Assembly: GCF_053078305.1 (NCBI RefSeq)
Contig: NZ_CP166879.1
DNA: 64,000 nucleotides
Strand: one strand, 5' to 3'
Below are positions 2,280 through 47,109 of the stretch, in pieces (position 1 is the stretch's first letter; every line of letters begins with the position of its first letter). The notes beneath the pieces were generated by a model. That model saw only the letters and a program-made list of their open reading frames with translations. It was not told the DNA's origin and did no database searches. A program made the translations under genes and the position numbers.

Positions 2280-3164
2280 ATGAAGCCTTTTTTGCGCTGG
2301 TGTTTCGTTGCGACAGCACTTACGCTTGCAGGATGCAGTAATACTTCCTGGCGTAAAAGTGAAGTCCTCGCGGTACCATTGCAACCGACTTTACAGCAGG
2401 AAGTGATTCTGGCACGTATGGAACAAATCCTTGCCAGTCGGGCTTTAACCGATGACGAACGCGCACAGCTTTTATATGAGCGCGGAGTGTTGTATGATAG
2501 TCTCGGTCTGAGGGCATTAGCGCGTAACGATTTTTCGCAAGCGCTGGCAATCCGACCGGATATGCCTGAAGTATTCAATTACTTAGGCATATATTTAACG
2601 CAGGCAGGCAATTTTGATGCTGCCTATGAAGCGTTTGATTCTGTACTTGAGCTTGATCCAACTTACAACTACGCGCACTTGAATCGCGGGATCGCATTAT
2701 ATTACGGCGGTCGTGACAAGTTAGCGCAAGATGATCTGCTGGCGTTTTATCAAGACGATCCCAATGATCCTTTCCGTAGTCTGTGGCTTTATCTCGCCGA
2801 GCAGAAGCTCGATGAGAAGCAGGCTAAAGAAGTGTTGAAACAGCACTTCGAAAAATCGGATAAGGAACAGTGGGGATGGAACATTGTCGAGTTCTACCTG
2901 GGCAACATTAGCGAACAAACGTTAATGGAAAGGCTCAAGGCGGACGCAACGGATAACACCTCGCTCGCTGAGCATCTCAGTGAAACCAACTTCTATTTAG
3001 GTAAGTACTACCTAAGTCTGGGGGATTTGGACAGCGCCACGGCACTGTTCAAACTGGCGGTTGCCAACAACGTTCATAACTTTGTTGAGCACCGATACGC
3101 ATTGTTGGAATTATCGCTCCTGGGCCAGGACCAAGATGACCTGGCAGAATCGGACCAGCAATAG
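2280..3164 (+). CDS. nlpI: lipoprotein NlpI (TPR repeat), 294 aa
   Basis: ORF with lipobox LAGC near N-terminus and TPR-like repeats; synteny after pnp. Confidence 0.93.
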
Positions 3165-34844: not shown

Positions 34845-35654
34845 ATGAGTAATACCGACGCTTCAGGTGAGAAGCGAGTGACAGGCACCAGCGAGCGACG
34901 AGAACAGATCATTCAGCGTCTGCGACTGCAAGGGAGTGTGCAGGTTAACGATCTGTCGGCATTGTATGGCGTATCTACTGTGACGATCCGCAACGATCTG
35001 GCGTTTCTGGAAAAGCAGGGGATCGCTGTGCGTGCCTATGGTGGCGCGTTGATCTGCGATAGCACGACGCCGTCAGTCGAGCCATCAGTGGAAGATAAAA
35101 GCGCGCTGAACACCGCAATGAAACGCAGCGTTGCGAAAGCTGCCGTTGAGTTGATTCAGCCAGGTCATCGGGTGATCCTCGATTCCGGGACCACCACTTT
35201 TGAGATTGCTCGTCTGATGCGCAAGCACACTGACGTAATTGCGATGACCAACGGTATGAACGTGGCTAATGCGTTGCTGGAAGCGGAAGGCGTTGAGCTG
35301 CTGATGACCGGCGGGCATTTGCGCCGTCAGTCGCAATCTTTTTACGGCGATCAGGCTGAACAATCGCTGCAAAATTACCACTTCGATATGCTGTTTCTTG
35401 GTGTAGATGCGATCGATCTGGAGCGCGGCGTCAGCACACATAATGAAGATGAAGCCCGTTTAAACCGCCGGATGTGCGAAGTTGCGGAACGGATCATCGT
35501 GGTCACCGATTCCAGTAAGTTCAATCGTTCCAGTTTACATAAGATCATTGATACTCAACGTATCGACATGATCATTGTTGATGAAGGCATTCCTGCGGAT
35601 AGTCTGGAAGGACTGCGAAAGGCTGGGGTTGAAGTGATTCTGGTCGGGGAGTGA
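34845..35654 (+). CDS. agaR: DeoR-family repressor AgaR, 269 aa
   Basis: N-terminal HTH plus DeoR C-terminal domain, recognised. Confidence 0.92.
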
Positions 35655-35708
35655 GAAAGGGTGCCCGCTGGTCAACACGAATGCGTTCGGCGGGCATTGT
35701 GAATACCA

Positions 35709-36173
35709 TCAATGGTTTTCTTCTGTCTCTTGGGTGAGGGTTTCCCAGTCGGCAGGAGGATGTCCTCTTTTTAACATTTTGCTGAATACGGTATAGGCAT
35801 CTGTTTTTTTACCGTAGGTGCGAAGAGTGTTTTCATCGTTCATCCATCCCAGAATGATGACTTTCTCTTTTTCACTATAACGAAAGAAGAGACGATAACG
35901 ACCAGCCCCAAATTTTACCCATGACCAGTCTTTATTTTTCCCTGAGCCTAACGACTTGCCATGACGGAATGCCGGTGATGATGGATTGACCGTGATATGC
36001 TCCTCAATCACTTTGTGAACTGCTGCCAATAACTTTGTGGCGGCATTTCTCTAATAATTTTCAGGATCTTTTCCCTTTAATGCCTCGACTTCGGCAACTA
36101 AAGCATCGTAGGTTTCCTGAAAACAGGGATGAGCATATAGCGCCCAACCATTAACCCTTTGTGGAAAATCCAT
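35709..36173 (-). pseudogene. yhaV: yhaV toxin gene (154-codon frame) interrupted by in-frame TAG at codon 41
   Basis: ATG at 36173 overlaps the prlF stop by 1 nt; frame reads MDFPQRVNGWALYAHPCFQETYDALVAEVEALKGKDPENY then TAG (36051-36053), then continues in the same frame through the recognisable YhaV C-terminus. Confidence 0.75.
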
Positions 36174-36508
36174 TATTCGTCGTCGCCAATCTCATCATCA
36201 ATGTTGACGTCCATGCCAGCGACAAGTTTCTTTCCTTGTTGAATGTCGAATGGACGAGTTTTTTGCGGGTTGTTCTGGATATCTGCATCCAGAAAACGCA
36301 AAAATGCATTCATAGTATGATCCTCCTGTTCATCTCCCAGTCGGCACATAAATACTTGCCCACCAGGCAGAATTTCGTAATGAATGTTGTCCAGGCCTGG
36401 CTTCAGTTTTAAGGCCTCACGCACTGGCGCGGGGATAGTTGTTTGTCCGCGTATCGTGACCTTTGATTCAGTGGTCAGTACAGCGTGAGAGCGAGCATTA
36501 GCGGGCAT
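36173..36508 (-). CDS. prlF: antitoxin PrlF (SohA), 111 aa
   Basis: Start set at MPANARSHAVLTTESKV; AbrB/SpoVT-type N-terminus and acidic C-terminus. Confidence 0.88.
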   Translation of the reverse strand: MPANARSHAVLTTESKVTIRGQTTIPAPVREALKLKPGLDNIHYEILPGGQVFMCRLGDEQEDHTMNAFLRFLDADIQNNPQKTRPFDIQQGKKLVAGMDVNIDDEIGDDE

Positions 36509-36605
36509 TAGGCACTGTACTTTTACAGCCTGTTTTCTGCTCAAATTATAAGCTTCAGCAAAGTAATGCAAATGCATTATTAATGGACGTGGGGGTTTTA
36601 AACAA

Positions 36606-36634
36606 TAAAAACATGGCACTAAGGCCATGTTTTG
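36606..36634 (-). terminator. intrinsic terminator downstream of garD
   Basis: Perfect 8-bp stem aacatggc / gccatgtt with 6-nt loop flanked by A- and T-runs. Confidence 0.7.
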
Positions 36635-36655
36635 CGAGGGACGTTCCAAAAGAAA

Positions 36656-38227
36656 TCAGGTCACCGGTGCCGGGTTAAACACCGCCAGCTGGTTATGCAG
36701 TCCCCATTGATCCGAGAAGGTTTTCTTCTTCCCGCTGGCGACGTCGAGAATAAAGTGGAACAACTTCCAGCCCACCTCTTCAATGGTTTCTTCGCCGGTG
36801 GCGATAGTGCCCGCGTTAATGTCCATTAAATCAAACCAGCGGTTCGCCAGCTCGGTGCGGGTCGCCATTTTAATGACGGGTACCGCCATCAGGCCGTACG
36901 GCGTACCACGACCGGTCGTAAACACTTGCACGGTGATACCCGAAGCCACCTGTTGCGTGCCACAGACAAAATCGCTGGCTGGCGTCGCGGCGTAAATTAA
37001 TCCGCGTTTAGTCGGGCGTTGACCGGGCGACAGCACTTCAACAATTGCACTTTTACCCGATTTAGCAATGGAGCCGAGTGCCTTCTCTACCACGTTTGCC
37101 AGACCGCCTTTCTTGTTGCCCGGCGAAGGGTTGGCGCTGCGGTCGGTTTTTCCCATATTGAGATAGTTATCGTACCACTCCATCTCCTCCAGCAGCCGTT
37201 TGCCGACCTCTTCGTTCACTGCGCGTGGTGTCAGCAGATGGATCGCGTCACGCACTTCCGTGACTTCTGAGAACATCACCGTTGCGCCGCAGCGCACCAG
37301 TAGATCAGACGCATACCCAACCGCCGGGTTTGCCGTTACGCCAGAAAAGGCATCGCTGCCACCGCACTGCATGCCGACAACCAGTTCTGAAGCCGGACAG
37401 GTTTCTCGCTGACGTTGATTCAGTTTTTGTAGATGGCGTTCGGCGACCTGCAAAATATCCTCGACCATGGACTGAAAACCGACATGCTTTTCATCCTGCA
37501 AACTGACAATGCTGGCGCTTTCTACTGGAATAGCTTGCACATCATCCGTTCCAGTCAGCAGGCGCTCAGGCTGCAACTTTTCACAACCCAGGCCAATCAC
37601 CATTACTTCGCCGCCAAAGTTAGGGTTCAGCGAAATATTGTGAATGGTACGAATAGGTACAACTGCCGCCGGTGCGTTAATCGCCACGCCACAACCGTAC
37701 AAATGATTCAGCCCCACCACGCCATCGACGTTCGGGTATTTCGGTAGCAGATCGCGTTCAATGATTTTTACTACATAGTCCACCACGCCTGCCACACAGT
37801 GGACGCTGGTGGTGATGCCGAGCAGGTTTTTGGTGCCCACGCTGCCATCGGCATTGCGATAGCCCTCAAAGGTGTATCCTTCCAGCGGCGGTAAGGGTTC
37901 CGGGACTTTGGTTGCCAGTGGCAGCGTGTGTAACGGCGGCGCTTCCGGTAGTACAACCATTGACTCGTCGATCCAGCTTCCGCGTGGGATTGCGCGCACG
38001 GCGTAACCAATCACTTCGCCATAACGAATAATTTCACCATTAGCCGGAATGTCCAGCAATGCGACTTTATGCCCCTGGGGAATATGTTCAATTAATTCCA
38101 GCCCATCCGGAAAACGCGTTCCTGCTTTCAGGCCATTATCATTAACAATAATTGCCACATTATCTGTGTCGTGAACTTTTATATAAAACGCAGTTGGCGT
38201 TTCTTGTCTGATTTCGATGTTGGCCAT
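36656..38227 (-). CDS. garD: galactarate dehydratase GarD, 523 aa
   Basis: ORF recognised. Confidence 0.94.
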
Positions 38228-41738: not shown

Positions 41739-42884
41739 ATGAAAATCGTAATCGCCCCAGACTCTTATAAAGAAAGTTTATCTGCCAGCGAGGTTGCGCA
41801 GGCGATAGAAAAAGGATTTCGGGAAATTTTTCCTGATGCACAGTACGTTTCTGTTCCTGTTGCCGACGGTGGCGAAGGAACGGTGGAAGCGATGATTGCA
41901 GCCACCCAGGGTTCCGAACGTCACGCCTGGGTTACAGGGCCGCTGGGCGAGAAAGTGAATGCCAGTTGGGGGATCTCCGGCGATGGCAAAACCGCGTTTA
42001 TTGAAATGGCGGCGGCCAGTGGGCTGGAGCTGGTACCTGCGGAAAAACGCGATCCACTCGTGACCACTTCACGCGGCACAGGCGAGTTAATCCTGCAGGC
42101 GCTGGAGAGCGGCGCGACAAACATTATTATCGGCATTGGCGGCAGCGCTACAAATGATGGCGGCGCAGGCATGGTACAGGCGCTGGGGGCGAAATTATGC
42201 GACGCCAACGGCAATGAAATTGGTTTTGGCGGCGGTAGTCTTAATACTCTGAATGATATTGATATTTCCGGCCTCGATCCGCGCTTAAAAGATTGCGTCA
42301 TTCGCGTCGCTTGTGATGTCACCAATCCGCTGGTGGGCGATAACGGCGCATCGCGCATCTTTGGCCCACAAAAGGGAGCCAGTGAAGCGATGATTGTTGA
42401 GCTGGACAATAACCTCTCTCACTATGCCGAGGTCATTAAAAAAGCGCTGCATGTTGATGTGAAAGATGTCCCCGGCGCAGGAGCTGCTGGCGGTATGGGA
42501 GCGGCGCTGATGGCGTTTCTTGGTGCGGAACTGAAAAGTGGTATTGAAATCGTCACTACGGCGCTGAATCTGGAGGAACATATTCACGATTGTACGCTGG
42601 TGATCACCGGTGAAGGGCGTATTGACAGCCAGAGTATTCACGGCAAGGTACCGATTGGCGTCGCAAACGTGGCGAAGAAGTACCATAAACCGGTGATTGG
42701 CATTGCGGGTAGCCTGACCGATGATGTTGGCGTTGTACATCAGCATGGTATTGATGCGGTCTTCAGCGTACTGACCAGCATTGGTACGTTGGACGAAGCA
42801 TTCCGCGGGGCTTATGACAATATCTGCCGTGCTTCACGTAATATCGCCGCGACACTGGCGATTGGAATGCGCAACGCGGGGTGA
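41739..42884 (+). CDS. garK: glycerate 2-kinase GarK, 381 aa
   Basis: Start set at MKIVIAPDSYKESLSA. Confidence 0.9.
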   Translation: MKIVIAPDSYKESLSASEVAQAIEKGFREIFPDAQYVSVPVADGGEGTVEAMIAATQGSERHAWVTGPLGEKVNASWGISGDGKTAFIEMAAASGLELVPAEKRDPLVTTSRGTGELILQALESGATNIIIGIGGSATNDGGAGMVQALGAKLCDANGNEIGFGGGSLNTLNDIDISGLDPRLKDCVIRVACDVTNPLVGDNGASRIFGPQKGASEAMIVELDNNLSHYAEVIKKALHVDVKDVPGAGAAGGMGAALMAFLGAELKSGIEIVTTALNLEEHIHDCTLVITGEGRIDSQSIHGKVPIGVANVAKKYHKPVIGIAGSLTDDVGVVHQHGIDAVFSVLTSIGTLDEAFRGAYDNICRASRNIAATLAIGMRNAG

Positions 42885-42909
42885 CAAGGGCGCGCAAACC
42901 CTCTATACT
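42882..42909 (+). promoter_or_regulatory. rnpB promoter (-35 tgacaa, -10 tatact)
   Basis: Hexamers with 16-bp spacing, -10 ending about 7 nt before the M1 RNA 5' end. Confidence 0.65.
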
Positions 42910-42916
42910 GCGCGCC

Positions 42917-43293
<377 letters not shown>

Positions 43294-43632
43294 GATTTAC
43301 GTAAAAACCCGCTTCGGCGGGTTTTTGCTTTTGGAGGGGCAGAAAGATGAATGACTGTCCACGACACTATACCCAAAAGAAAGCGGCTTATCGGTCAGTT
43401 TCACCTGATTTACGTAAAAACCCGCTTCGGCGGTTTTTTGCTTTTGGAGGGGCAGAAAGATGAATGACTGTCCACGACACTATACCCAAAAGAAAGCGGC
43501 TTATCGGTCAGTTTTACCTGATTTAACGAAAACCCGCCAGCGTAAACTGGCGGGTTTTTGCTTTTGGTGCACAGGGTAAGATGAATAAATATCTACGGTA
43601 TTAATAATAGACTTTGTAAGAAGTTATTAAGT

Positions 43633-44821
43633 CTATATTGCATTTAAAAGGTCGTAATTATACGTATAGTCCTCTCTGGTAAAATATTGGTTCTCTGAGT
43701 TATATGCTTCATATGTGTTATATTCCCCGACCTCAAAACCATTGTCCGGAGAATTTTCGTCTTTCTCGAGGGTGTTATCTGAAAGTAACTCTTCTGAGCT
43801 AGAGTCTTCTATGTTTAAATCCATAGTATAATTAATTTGGGGAATGACCAGATAAGCATTTTCTTTGATATTTTCATAATCTTCAATGATTATGTCGATA
43901 TAATCATGTATTTTTTTCTGATGAGAAATCTATCATCTCTGGTAATTTAATTCTGTTCAAGAAATTATTGATTTTCGATGAGCTTTTATATATTTCTTTT
44001 GTTAATTCATTTTCTAATTTATCTGTAAGAGTTGCTCTTGGTATAGATTTTATAATTGCAAATCTCATGATTTTTAATTGTTCTTCGGTAATATCTCCAA
44101 GCTCATTTAAACAACTTTCGACAAGCTTAATTTTTTCTTCAGAATACATATCGCTAATGCTTGTTAGAACAGGCGTTATTTTTAGTAAATAATCCCAGGA
44201 GATTGTGGTGTTTTGTTTTGAACTAACGAAATTTACCTGAAACATGTTGGCATTAGTAAAATCTGTGTCATCCAATTTAAAAGGATTTAAAATTGCATTG
44301 GCCATATGTTTATCTGTAAAATCATAAAGTTCTAAATCGACATTCCGTAAGTCCAGAGAGGATAGATCAACTATACCTCCAGTTCCACAACTAAAAACTA
44401 CGTTTAACCTCCTGATTTCATTGTAAATATCTTTCAATGGACAATTAACATTGATATTGCCTGTGGATATTTCCTGGTTTTTTAACGGTTCATTAATTGT
44501 AAGTTCGCAGGTATTGTCTGATCGTTGAATAATTCGGGCGTTATAACCAAAAAAATCCATACGAAGAGACGAATCATTATAAAGAATTACATTTTGTAAG
44601 TACGCTAATTCTTTTTGAAAATCACCAGTGATAACACATTTCCCACCTGGTTGTAACGCGTTAAGTAAAGTGACCATTTCAATAGAGGTCTGTTTTAGTT
44701 TTTCTATACCTGGTGCTAGTGCTTCGAGGTTATTAACTATGGGGCTTTCAGGAAGGTCATTCATTTTTCGACGGACTAAATCACTACTAATATCATTACC
44801 AATTGATGAAACAGGGAACAT
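43633..44821 (-). pseudogene. yhaC: yhaC with +1 frameshift in A7/T7 homopolymer
   Basis: Two adjacent ORFs (44821-43904 and 43824-43633) in different frames; locus is 1189 nt where an intact 395-aa gene needs 1188; shift maps to T7 run at 43911-43917. Confidence 0.7.
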
Positions 44822-44842
44822 TATTTTATCCTTTATAAATAA

Positions 44843-45403
44843 TCAATAAAAATCATTATTAAAATGATCGGGTGAAAAAAAGAGAATTTGCCAACAATCT
44901 GAAGTAATGCTGGTTTTATTAAAGTGCACAAGAGGTGTTAAGATGGCTTCTTTTCGGGTGAATTTTGCACAATACTTAGAAATCGTCTCCTTAATACATT
45001 CCAGCTCTTTTTTATTGACGGCTGAGCAAGTACATTGTTCGCCAAAAGGTGCAAAAGTGCCTACATCTAATGTTTGTATGATATAATCATCATGTTCTCC
45101 TGTAGAAATATCTATGATGAATGGACTCATATTTTCCGGTTGGATTCGGATCATGACAGAAGGAACATCGCCTTGATAGAAATTCAATGCAGTAATTGCA
45201 GATAATACTCTCCGCAGTTCATTACTTATACTGTATATTTTATTAACGTCATTGGTGGAGACAATTTCTGCAAACTTTCTTTTTACCGTCCAATAATCAA
45301 TATTTCTATTGTGATTGTTAACCACTGCGTGCATTGGTGGGATTGAAGGGTGAAAAATATGTGCAATTGGGAAGCCTTTCATTGATGCCTGCCTTGTCAT
45401 CAT
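44843..45403 (-). CDS. yhaB: uncharacterised protein YhaB (about 186 aa)
   Basis: ORF recognised; exact start among adjacent Met codons uncertain; AT-rich. Confidence 0.78.
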   Translation of the reverse strand: MMTRQASMKGFPIAHIFHPSIPPMHAVVNNHNRNIDYWTVKRKFAEIVSTNDVNKIYSISNELRRVLSAITALNFYQGDVPSVMIRIQPENMSPFIIDISTGEHDDYIIQTLDVGTFAPFGEQCTCSAVNKKELECIKETISKYCAKFTRKEAILTPLVHFNKTSITSDCWQILFFSPDHFNNDFY

Positions 45404-45637: not shown

Positions 45638-45982
45638 TTATGGAAAACGATTGCATTCACAAAATGACGTCCTGTCAGAAGAGAAAAAGTTGATGTTAAT
45701 CAATTGTTCGAGATGATCAATACCTGTATTCGAAATTTTAAAATATTGATAAAATAAATGTTTGTTCTCCAACAAATAGCGTGAAAAAATGTGACGTGCC
45801 GCATTATTTATCGCTGAAAATGGTTTATTTATAATAAAATTTGAGAACTTGCTCATTAAATTTAACTCAAATTTTGCCTGGTAATTATCCGGTAATTGCT
45901 TGAAATATGGTCTCAGCCCCTTTTTTGTATTAACCACATAACGAATGATGTTATCGCCATAAAATATGGTTATCCCCGTCAT
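45638..45982 (-). CDS. tdcR: TdcR, putative tdc operon regulator (long form about 114 aa)
   Basis: ORF recognised; start uncertain (shorter forms annotated in some genomes). Confidence 0.65.
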   Translation of the reverse strand: MTGITIFYGDNIIRYVVNTKKGLRPYFKQLPDNYQAKFELNLMSKFSNFIINKPFSAINNAARHIFSRYLLENKHLFYQYFKISNTGIDHLEQLININFFSSDRTSFCECNRFP

Positions 45983-46092
45983 TTTTTTTGACAAAAATCA
46001 GGGTTTATGCTGATTTTTATACTTTAACTTATTGATATTTAAAGGTATTTAATTGACATGACGATACCTTGGAAAGTATTGAAAGTTAATTT

Positions 46093-46108
46093 GTGAGTGG
46101 TCGCACAT
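46093..46108 (+). promoter_or_regulatory. CRP binding site in tdc promoter
   Basis: tgtgagtggtcgcaca matches TGTGA-N6-TCACA; tdc operon is known to be catabolite-controlled. Confidence 0.6.
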
Positions 46109-46170
46109 ATCCTGTTCATTTCATTTTGATACACTTCATGCCGTCAATGAGGTAATTAACGTAGGTCGTT

Positions 46171-47109
46171 ATGAGCACTATTCTTCTTCCGAAAACGCAG
46201 CACCTGGTAGTCTTTCAGGAAGTCATTAGAAGTGGCTCTATCGGCTCGGCTGCAAAAGAATTAGGGTTAACTCAACCGGCCGTCAGTAAAATCATTAACG
46301 ATATTGAAGATTATTTTGGTGTGGAATTAGTGGTGCGGAAAAATACCGGAGTAACATTAACACCTGCCGGTCAATTGTTACTCTCTCGTTCCGAATCCAT
46401 TACCCGTGAAATGAAAAATATGGTTAATGAGATAAGCGGTATGTCTTCTGAGGCGGTGGTGGAAGTCTCATTTGGTTTTCCTTCATTGATTGGTTTTACT
46501 TTTATGTCAGGGATGATCAACAAGTTCAAAGAGGTGTTCCCGAAAGCGCAGGTTTCTATGTATGAAGCGCAACTGTCTTCGTTCTTACCGGCAATCCGCG
46601 ACGGTCGACTTGATTTTGCGATTGGTACGTTAAGCGCAGAAATGAAGCTTCAGGATTTACATGTTGAGCCGCTGTTCGAGTCCGAGTTTGTGCTGGTAGC
46701 CAGTAAGTCCCGAACATGCACCGGCACCACCACGCTGGAGTCGTTGAAGAACGAACAGTGGGTGTTGCCACAAACTAATATGGGGTACTACAGCGAACTG
46801 CTTACTACGTTACAAAGAAATGGCATCAGTATTGAAAACATCGTTAAAACCGACTCAGTCGTGACAATTTATAATCTTGTTCTCAATGCTGATTTCTTAA
46901 CTGTAATTCCTTGTGATATGACGTCTCCTTTTGGTTCTAATCAATTTATTACTATTCCGGTTGAAGAAACATTACCTGTGGCACAATATGCCGCGGTATG
47001 GTCGAAAAATTATCGTATTAAAAAAGCAGCATCGGTTTTGGTGGAATTAGCCAAAGAGTATTCATCTTATAATGGGTGTAGACGAAGGCAATTAATAGAA
47101 GTTGGTTAG
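46171..47109 (+). CDS. tdcA: LysR-family activator TdcA, 312 aa
   Basis: ORF recognised. Confidence 0.92.
   Translation: MSTILLPKTQHLVVFQEVIRSGSIGSAAKELGLTQPAVSKIINDIEDYFGVELVVRKNTGVTLTPAGQLLLSRSESITREMKNMVNEISGMSSEAVVEVSFGFPSLIGFTFMSGMINKFKEVFPKAQVSMYEAQLSSFLPAIRDGRLDFAIGTLSAEMKLQDLHVEPLFESEFVLVASKSRTCTGTTTLESLKNEQWVLPQTNMGYYSELLTTLQRNGISIENIVKTDSVVTIYNLVLNADFLTVIPCDMTSPFGSNQFITIPVEETLPVAQYAAVWSKNYRIKKAASVLVELAKEYSSYNGCRRRQLIEVG

Follow-up and report, generated by a model that had tools for sequence, protein, structure and literature searches.

The yhaC gene of the window, by which we mean the whole 64,000-nt stretch of DNA analysed here, belongs to the YhaC family but is disrupted, and by annotation criteria it is a pseudogene allele. 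A short run of A residues late in the gene is one nucleotide longer than in the intact gene, and the extra base is very probably a real +1 insertion (A6 to A7), of the replication-slippage kind, that has been inherited vertically.

Structure of the disrupted yhaC locus

The yhaC locus occupies positions 43633..44821 on the minus strand, and it was identified as a frameshifted allele, and as a pseudogene by RefSeq criteria, from the annotation of its relatives and from the intact gene of K-12 MG1655 (b3121), which is 1188 nt long, has A6 at the tract and encodes 395 aa. An earlier note on this DNA, made from the letters alone, had described the locus as one nucleotide too long and as split into two open reading frames in different frames, of 305 and 63 codons. 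Indeed, the locus measures 1189 nt and both reading frames are present, the longer at 43904..44821 (305 aa) and the shorter at 43633..43824 (63 aa), both on the minus strand. The surplus base lies in a homopolymer of seven A (T7 on the plus strand) at 43911..43917, minus strand, where the note had placed it; the run can be read directly from the window sequence. It corresponds to gene nt 905-911, in the minus-strand context ...GATTTCTCATCAGAAAAAAATACATGA..., and both alignments and our census of tract lengths identify A6 as the ancestral state.

The 5' reading frame (43904..44821, minus strand) comprises 305 codons and a premature TGA at 43904-43906, and it specifies YhaC residues 1-303 followed by Asn-Thr. 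At the junction of the frames the sequence reads ...GATTTCTCATCAG-AAAAAAA-TACATGA..., with the TGA two codons past A7. In the +1 frame no stop interrupts the sequence between gene nt 893 and the normal stop, and the two frames overlap by only 26 nt. What remains of the gene beyond the tract in the +1 frame (43633..43910, minus strand) consists of 92 codons, uninterrupted by any secondary stop, and the normal stop. These codons specify the C-terminal helix and an acidic tail rich in Tyr, Asp and Glu (IHDYIDII...DLLNAI). The 63-aa ORF starts at an internal Met and is a sub-part of this remainder.

The most probable course of events is a replication slippage from A6 to A7 in an ancestor common to the window and to the lineage of genome XH990, described below. 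Translation from the normal start then runs through residues 1-303 and Asn-Thr into the premature TGA, the last 92 residues (23% of YhaC), with the predicted helix and the acidic tail, are lost, and the gene at best gives a C-terminally truncated product of 305 aa. Judging from the frames, function is probably lost or reduced, with the N-terminal 303 residues left intact. The A7 allele may have persisted because yhaC is dispensable, presumably under relaxed selection.

The surroundings of the gene are those of its relatives: yhaC occupies the canonical slot in the order tdcR-yhaB-yhaC-rnpB. The upstream gene of the same AT-rich two-gene islet, yhaB (44843..45382, minus strand), has an intact ORF that ends 21 nt before yhaC, and a yhaB coding sequence of 540 nt is found at the equivalent relative position in annotated relatives. 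The convergent downstream neighbour is rnpB, the RNase P RNA gene (42917..43293, plus strand; Rfam RF00010, 318.6 bits). A 113-bp tandem repeat of 2.4 copies, to which no strand is assigned, lies between rnpB and yhaC at 43271..43537. The window has one more copy of this downstream repeat than XH990, and the copy number is the sole structural difference between the window and the XH990 haplotype.

Restoration of the frame by a single deletion

Deleting one A from the run fuses the two frames, as had been proposed, and an uninterrupted product of 395 aa with ...DFSSEKIHDYIDIIIEDYENIKENAYLVIPQINYTMDLNIED... is obtained. This repaired protein is identical to K-12 YhaC at 364 of 395 positions, and it agrees at every position (100% identity) with an intact "YhaC family protein" encoded on 257 public contigs in a collection of 15 billion proteins. 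It matches the NCBIfam equivalog NF007262 with 885.3 bits (cutoff 765) over positions 1-395 of 395, which is a full-length match above the cutoff. Since the two frames together make up a known protein from end to end, the split of yhaC is not a chance arrangement. The window has no single intact frame for full YhaC, as a stop follows codon 305, and a frame that is interrupted in comparison with near homologues of full length and can be restored by a one-nucleotide fix is what PGAP designates a frameshifted pseudogene.

The same allele in other E. coli genomes

We searched the yhaC locus by megablast against 5426 complete E. coli genomes, and found no copy among them that was 100% identical to that of the window. 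The 14 closest loci are 99.8-99.9% identical, and all are 1189 nt long with A7; the next closest are 1188 nt. In all A7 genomes that were aligned the extra base falls in the same A run. An 87-nt probe for A7, centred on the tract, matched 22 complete genomes perfectly and 4 more with one SNP, out of 1620 sharing the flanks. The 14 genomes of the lineage come from varied hosts and countries, and A7 is present in every one of them. The exact A7 47-mer was not found in the GTDB species representatives.

The A7 frameshift in yhaC is already known in the sense that it is annotated as a pseudogene in related public genomes. All 12 A7 loci that we inspected are flagged by RefSeq as "YhaC family protein, frameshifted", among them those of XH990, TUM18780, Santai (O157:H16), C7/O111:H2 and DEC5A (O55:H7). 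These have the same gene, the same insertion and the same 305-codon frame as the window. The earlier note had held that its reading would fail if A7 alleles elsewhere encoded an intact protein in another arrangement of frames; this is not what the 12 loci look like. The 305-aa truncated product is likewise on record in the collection of 15 billion proteins, with 309 contigs for the XH990 group, 63 for the C7/O111:H2 group and two, under two separate protein accessions, for the O55:H7 DEC5A type. The yhaC of the XH990 type differs from that of the window by one SNP, with Val150 there and Ile150 in the window, and the exact 305-aa product of the window, with Ile150 for Val150, is absent from the same collection. 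Over 25 kb no complete genome is more than 99.5% identical to the window, which therefore represents a separate strain with the same type of allele.

For annotation, the consequence is that the label of a yhaC pseudogene (frameshifted allele) should take the place of two hypothetical ORFs, and that the assembly should be left unedited at A7. As a lineage marker, too, the A7 allele may be of use.

Length of the A tract across E. coli

The tract at gene nt 905 was surveyed with probes of 85-88 nt, which we scored from the band of perfect matches and from the subject lengths. Low-complexity filtering by DUST would be expected to mask A7 and leave A6 unmasked. Tract-centred probes of about 47 nt were dropped, as this masking was expected to block seeding on A7, and so were composite multi-probe queries, the pieces of which were merged into one "place" and gave uninterpretable counts.

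Three flank haplotypes cover essentially all of the 4314 complete genomes with a full-length yhaC. A7 was found in 26 of 1620 genomes with flanks of the window type, in 4 of 1344 with K-12-type flanks (one of the four being CV601, which looks error-prone) and in 1 of about 1345 with the third flank type. The comparison across E. coli that the earlier note had recommended thus gives A7 in 31 of about 4310 genomes (0.7%) and A6 in more than 99%. Within the window-type flanks (n = 1620), A5 occurs in 2 genomes, A6 in about 1592 and A7 in 26, while A8 was found in none (0/1620). The A7 state is carried on about ten allele backgrounds, as judged by eye. Since these backgrounds differ by 20-80 SNPs, A7 appears to have arisen repeatedly or, less parsimoniously, short gene-conversion tracts may have carried the insertion between alleles. 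To judge from this distribution, the nt 905 run behaves as an ordinary slippage-prone short tract and not as a contingency locus.

Other lesions in yhaC and the question of selection

Frameshifts are evidently not peculiar to nt 905, as two further A6 runs of the gene also give A7. At the run at gene nt 339, A7 was found in 4 of 2064 genomes of one flank type; all four come from pigs, and we judged them to be one clade. At the run at gene nt 686, A7 was found in 2 of about 2230 genomes, again of one flank type. A much commoner lesion is the BL21/HS-type +1 frameshift, A5 to A6 at gene nt 1094, which is present in about 407 genomes and the 367-aa product of which (e.g. ECBD_0619) is encoded on at least 1000 contigs. 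It arose independently of the lesion in the window, which it resembles in adding one base to a short A run within the 3' quarter of yhaC, in its inheritance throughout a clade and in being flagged as a pseudogene, but it lies at a different site in a different, divergent allele and is commoner (about 407 against 31 genomes). Both common frameshifts, at nt 905 and nt 1094, lie in the last quarter of the gene.

More drastic lesions were also found. A nonsense mutation, E135*, is present in ES5 and TKEC21-59 on two allele backgrounds, and the yhaC of TKEC21-59 has three lesions at once, E135* and both frameshifts. In WEM25 an IS1 truncation occurs together with A7. Only partial coverage of yhaC, which we scored as deletion, was obtained in 1087 complete genomes (~20%), and in an ST131 example yhaB-yhaC is reduced to a remnant of ~105 nt. 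These many independent lesions across the species suggest that yhaC is dispensable in many lineages, and alleles made by slippage, nonsense mutation, IS insertion and deletion would persist because of this dispensability. Taken together, the lesions of yhaC, with +1 insertions in four A runs (three of them A6 and one A5), the nonsense mutation, IS1 and deletion, are a convenient natural example of ongoing gene loss. Beyond annotation they carry little weight, and the recurrent multi-site decay of an orphan gene is a minor curiosity.

By eye we count about 10 independent events at nt 905 and about 1-2 each at nt 339 and nt 686, the two control tracts being scored on one flank type each. This contrast is only suggestive, and would hint that truncation of the 3' end is better tolerated, or even favoured. 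One could accordingly read the A7 allele, like that of the BL21 type, as encoding a working, shorter YhaC without the acidic tail, with recurrent truncation being tolerated or positively selected. We regard this as improbable. The frameshifts at nt 905 and nt 1094 do spare the first 303-365 residues, and fewer events are seen in the A6 tracts of equal length at nt 339 and nt 686, where the products would be much shorter; a longer run, T7 at nt 267 of the window-type allele, is invariant in the genomes inspected, and a study of 92 E. coli genomes from wastewater reported yhaC as one of the 14 genes with the most significant positive selection (PMC9110714). However, early or null lesions persist as well (E135*, the +1 insertion at nt 339, IS1, the deletion in ~20% of genomes and the triple lesion of TKEC21-59), in intact alleles purifying selection acts on the C-terminal segment, too (dN/dS 0.2-0.7), and the event counts are small and not corrected for phylogeny.

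A stronger version would make the A6 run at nt 905 a low-frequency selectable switch, through which the acidic tail of an orphan protein that diversifies rapidly under positive selection would be lost time and again in different lineages, perhaps in a reversible manner. If this were true, the excess of A7 at nt 905 over the earlier tracts of equal length would reflect selection and not neutral decay; we consider it very doubtful.

Probable inheritance of A7 in the window

Genuine insertion and inheritance by descent remain the reading that we prefer. XH990 was the one genome of the A7 lineage that we compared with the window base by base. Over 42449-44933 the differences between the two amount to one SNP private to XH990 (44374) and to a single copy more or less of the 113-bp repeat, and the window and XH990 share six states against D8, the closest A6 genome. 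In the repeat, the window has the three-copy arrangement, as do the A6 genomes D8 and ES5, and XH990 has two copies. Across 25 kb, private indels of the window are absent from all coding regions; the single one present is a deletion of 1 nt in the spacer between prlF and garD, within a divergent patch. Because of this lack of private coding indels, the assembly does not appear to be prone to homopolymer errors. On the evidence of the shared haplotype, the window and the XH990 lineage most likely have their A7 from a common ancestor.

The earlier note had left the choice between an error and a genuine slipped-strand variant, and the latter is favoured by the 14 A7 genomes, the XH990 haplotype, the 309 contigs with the truncated product of that lineage and the absence of private coding indels. 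A sequencing or assembly error in the homopolymer, with a source strain that is truly A6 and has an intact yhaC, seems very unlikely to us, even though the intact allele that encodes the repaired protein is common whereas the exact truncated product of the window is unrecorded, and even though the window agrees with the A6 genomes D8 and ES5 in repeat copy number. Given this repeat arrangement, a small probability also attaches to an A7 that arose privately on an intact allele. Some singleton A7 records do show signs of error: in CV601 the yhaC gene lacks single nucleotides at three more sites, and PCN061, another singleton, also has a frameshifted yhaB. The haplotype of the window, however, agrees with the A7 lineage and not with the nearest A6 genome; in that lineage A7 is fixed in 14/14 complete genomes, and private coding indels are lacking over 25 kb of the window.

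Comparison with recoded and phase-variable genes

The 0-frame codon that follows the potential shift site in the A7 allele is AAU, which is not expected to be slow or shift-promoting. That the A7 run itself restores full-length YhaC, by +1 ribosomal slippage on A-AAA-AAA-U or by transcriptional slippage, or that it toggles yhaC on and off, is extremely improbable: a +1 shift of the P-site tRNA-Lys in the run would, from the sequence, yield exactly the wild-type ...SSEKIHDY, the frames overlap over so short a distance, and A5, A6 and A7 are all present in the population, but the two-frame arrangement is not conserved, with more than 99% of genomes being in frame with A6, the lack of A8 and the presence of A7 throughout its lineage point to a length that is stable and not toggling, the 7-nt run is shorter than the slippage threshold of roughly 9 nt (PMC1088944), and the single-A deletion that is needed here is the disfavoured direction (PMC5574713). 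In many bacteria, selection against slippage-prone runs becomes visible once a run reaches about 9 nt (PMC1088944), and in E. coli transcripts slippage at A/T runs leads to insertions that become exponentially more frequent as the run lengthens, with deletions being rarely associated with runs (PMC5574713).

Two classes of known systems invite comparison with a genuine A7 allele. The contingency loci of Neisseria, Haemophilus and Campylobacter resemble yhaC in having a coding homopolymer whose length switches the frame, in a fast-evolving, non-essential gene. The yhaC tract differs from theirs in being only 6-7 nt long, near-monomorphic, fixed in the A7 lineage and without A8, and it would appear to be the site of an ordinary mutation rather than a switch reversible at high frequency; where a phase-variable gene shows several tract lengths among close relatives, we see near-monomorphic A6 and fixation of A7 in one lineage. 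Genes expressed through slippage or programmed frameshifting, such as those of IS transposases, the dnaX of T. thermophilus with its A9 and prfB, share with yhaC the overlapping frames joined at an A run. In yhaC, by comparison, the frameshift is a rare derived state in a run shorter than ~9 nt, and a deletion would be needed to restore the frame; neither the conserved arrangement nor the A/T run of ~9 that marks such genes is found at nt 905.

Composition, distribution and constraint of YhaC

The earlier note had called yhaC AT-rich and probably horizontally acquired. Its GC content is 31-33%, with 31-38% for the yhaB-yhaC islet, against 52-56% in the gar/rnpB flank; on the tdc side GC rises only gradually. 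YhaC was found solely in E. coli/Shigella, both in a word-indexed search of 5.8 billion proteins and in an exhaustive HMMER search of 1.84 billion representatives, and this set includes a divergent 389-aa variant with 65% identity. The restriction fits an AT-rich, putatively horizontally acquired gene. Apart from E. coli YhaC and its fragments, the HMMER search of the 1.84 billion representatives gave no homologue, save weak repeat-like matches to residues 150-198.

Membership in the pentapeptide-repeat families was considered and rejected. In searches against the Pfam families PF00805 and PF13599, residues 152-201 of YhaC gave only two scores below the gathering threshold, 13.6 bits (cutoff 38) and 11.4 bits (cutoff 20.2), and the best sequence match in the PDB is a pentapeptide protein with E=0.18, so that there is a resemblance and not an assignment. 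A search with PADLOC gave no match to YhaC, PHROGs gave only matches at E of 0.04 or worse, and yhaB has no family match in Pfam, NCBIfam or PADLOC. A reading of the yhaB-yhaC islet as a defence system or a toxin was dropped, being unsupported by the Pfam, PADLOC, PHROGs, PDB and HMMER searches. An AlphaFold2 model of YhaC, built on an alignment of 13 sequences that are all at least 65% identical, had a mean pLDDT of 36.6 and a pTM of 0.28, and was too poor for a fold search.

A handful of papers mention yhaC, and none of these treats its frameshift; the main text of PMC11128740 does not mention the gene, and PMC6597613 proved to be a false match to the symbol "YHAc/s". yhaB-yhaC has been described as a young operon (phylostratum 9) to which no function is assigned (PMC12218254). 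A tabulation of islands associated with H-NS includes a promoter island of 706 bp inside yhaC, for which the H-NS columns carry marks (PMC3661553).

Lastly, we compared intact alleles of yhaC with one another. Between most of the allele pairs compared dN/dS is ~0.25, and dS reaches 0.15-0.18. Given a dN/dS of this size between alleles, intact yhaC is a real coding gene: purifying selection acts on its protein, albeit in a relaxed form, and its alleles have diverged to an unusual depth.

Further inactivating changes in yhaC

In the strains BL21, HS and CE0032f, we found a second +1 frameshift in yhaC, at gene nt ~1094 (window equivalent ~43728), where a run of five A residues is extended to six. 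This frameshift, which is absent from the window yhaC, sits in the divergent 3' segment of the gene and results in a product of 367 aa. Approximately 407 of the 5426 complete E. coli genomes carry it, BL21 and HS among them, and the 367-aa product was found on at least 1000 contigs of the 15-billion-protein collection.

A nonsense change at codon 135 (GAA to TAA, E135*; window position 44419) was observed in both ES5 and TKEC21-59. The backgrounds differ by approximately 74 SNPs, ES5 having a window-type allele and TKEC21-59 a BL21-type allele, and the occurrence of E135* on two allele types would be explained either by parallel mutation or by a short recombination patch. In TKEC21-59, three lesions are found together, namely E135*, the A7 run at nt 905 and the A6 run at nt 1094.

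The window-type allele also contains a T7 run at gene nt 267–273 (window 44549–44555), equal in length to the mutated A7 run, whereas the K-12-type sequence at these positions is T6 and then A. Among the genomes inspected, no frameshift was seen at this T7 run.

Deletion and deep divergence of yhaC

In ST131 and many other genomes, yhaB-yhaC has shrunk to a remnant of approximately 105 nt flanked by tdcR and rnpB; for the ST131 strain 2017_APHA, the remnant region lies at 2898–3105 of the extracted locus. Overall, yhaC coverage was only partial in 1087 complete genomes. In 2017_APHA, the one ST131 genome looked at, tdcR contains an internal stop as well.

We also found a highly divergent E. 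coli YhaC variant of 389 aa, with 65% amino-acid identity, on 422 contigs. A yhaC-related sequence in strain N96, annotated as 'hypothetical protein', has a nucleotide identity of only 78.7% and may occupy the yhaC locus. Both extend the allelic divergence of the orphan gene yhaC, which is unusually deep.

Repeats and possible recombination around the locus

Descriptions of repeats 3' of rnpB date from the 1980s. In the window, a 113-bp tandem repeat (43271–43537; 2.4 copies, 96% matches) occupies the rnpB-yhaC spacer and runs into the 3' end of rnpB (42917–43293), and every unit contains a GC-rich hairpin and, after it, a T run. The spacer measures 106 nt in DEC5A, 226 nt in XH990, 339 nt in the window, D8 and ES5, 394 nt in HS, 507 nt in C7 and BL21, and 613 nt in K-12. 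These stepwise lengths suggest changes in repeat copy number between strains.

Over 25 kb, the top identity of the window to any complete genome is only 99.5%. Compared with both ES5 and XH990 (whose A7 haplotype is near-identical to the window's around yhaC), dense patches of window-private SNPs are located at 35000–37000 and 45694–46926, and, judged from their pattern, look like a recombination mosaic. There are 42 window-private differences across yhaV/prlF-garD, compared with 8 across tdcR-tdcA, and a private 1-nt deletion is found at 36559, in the prlF-garD spacer.
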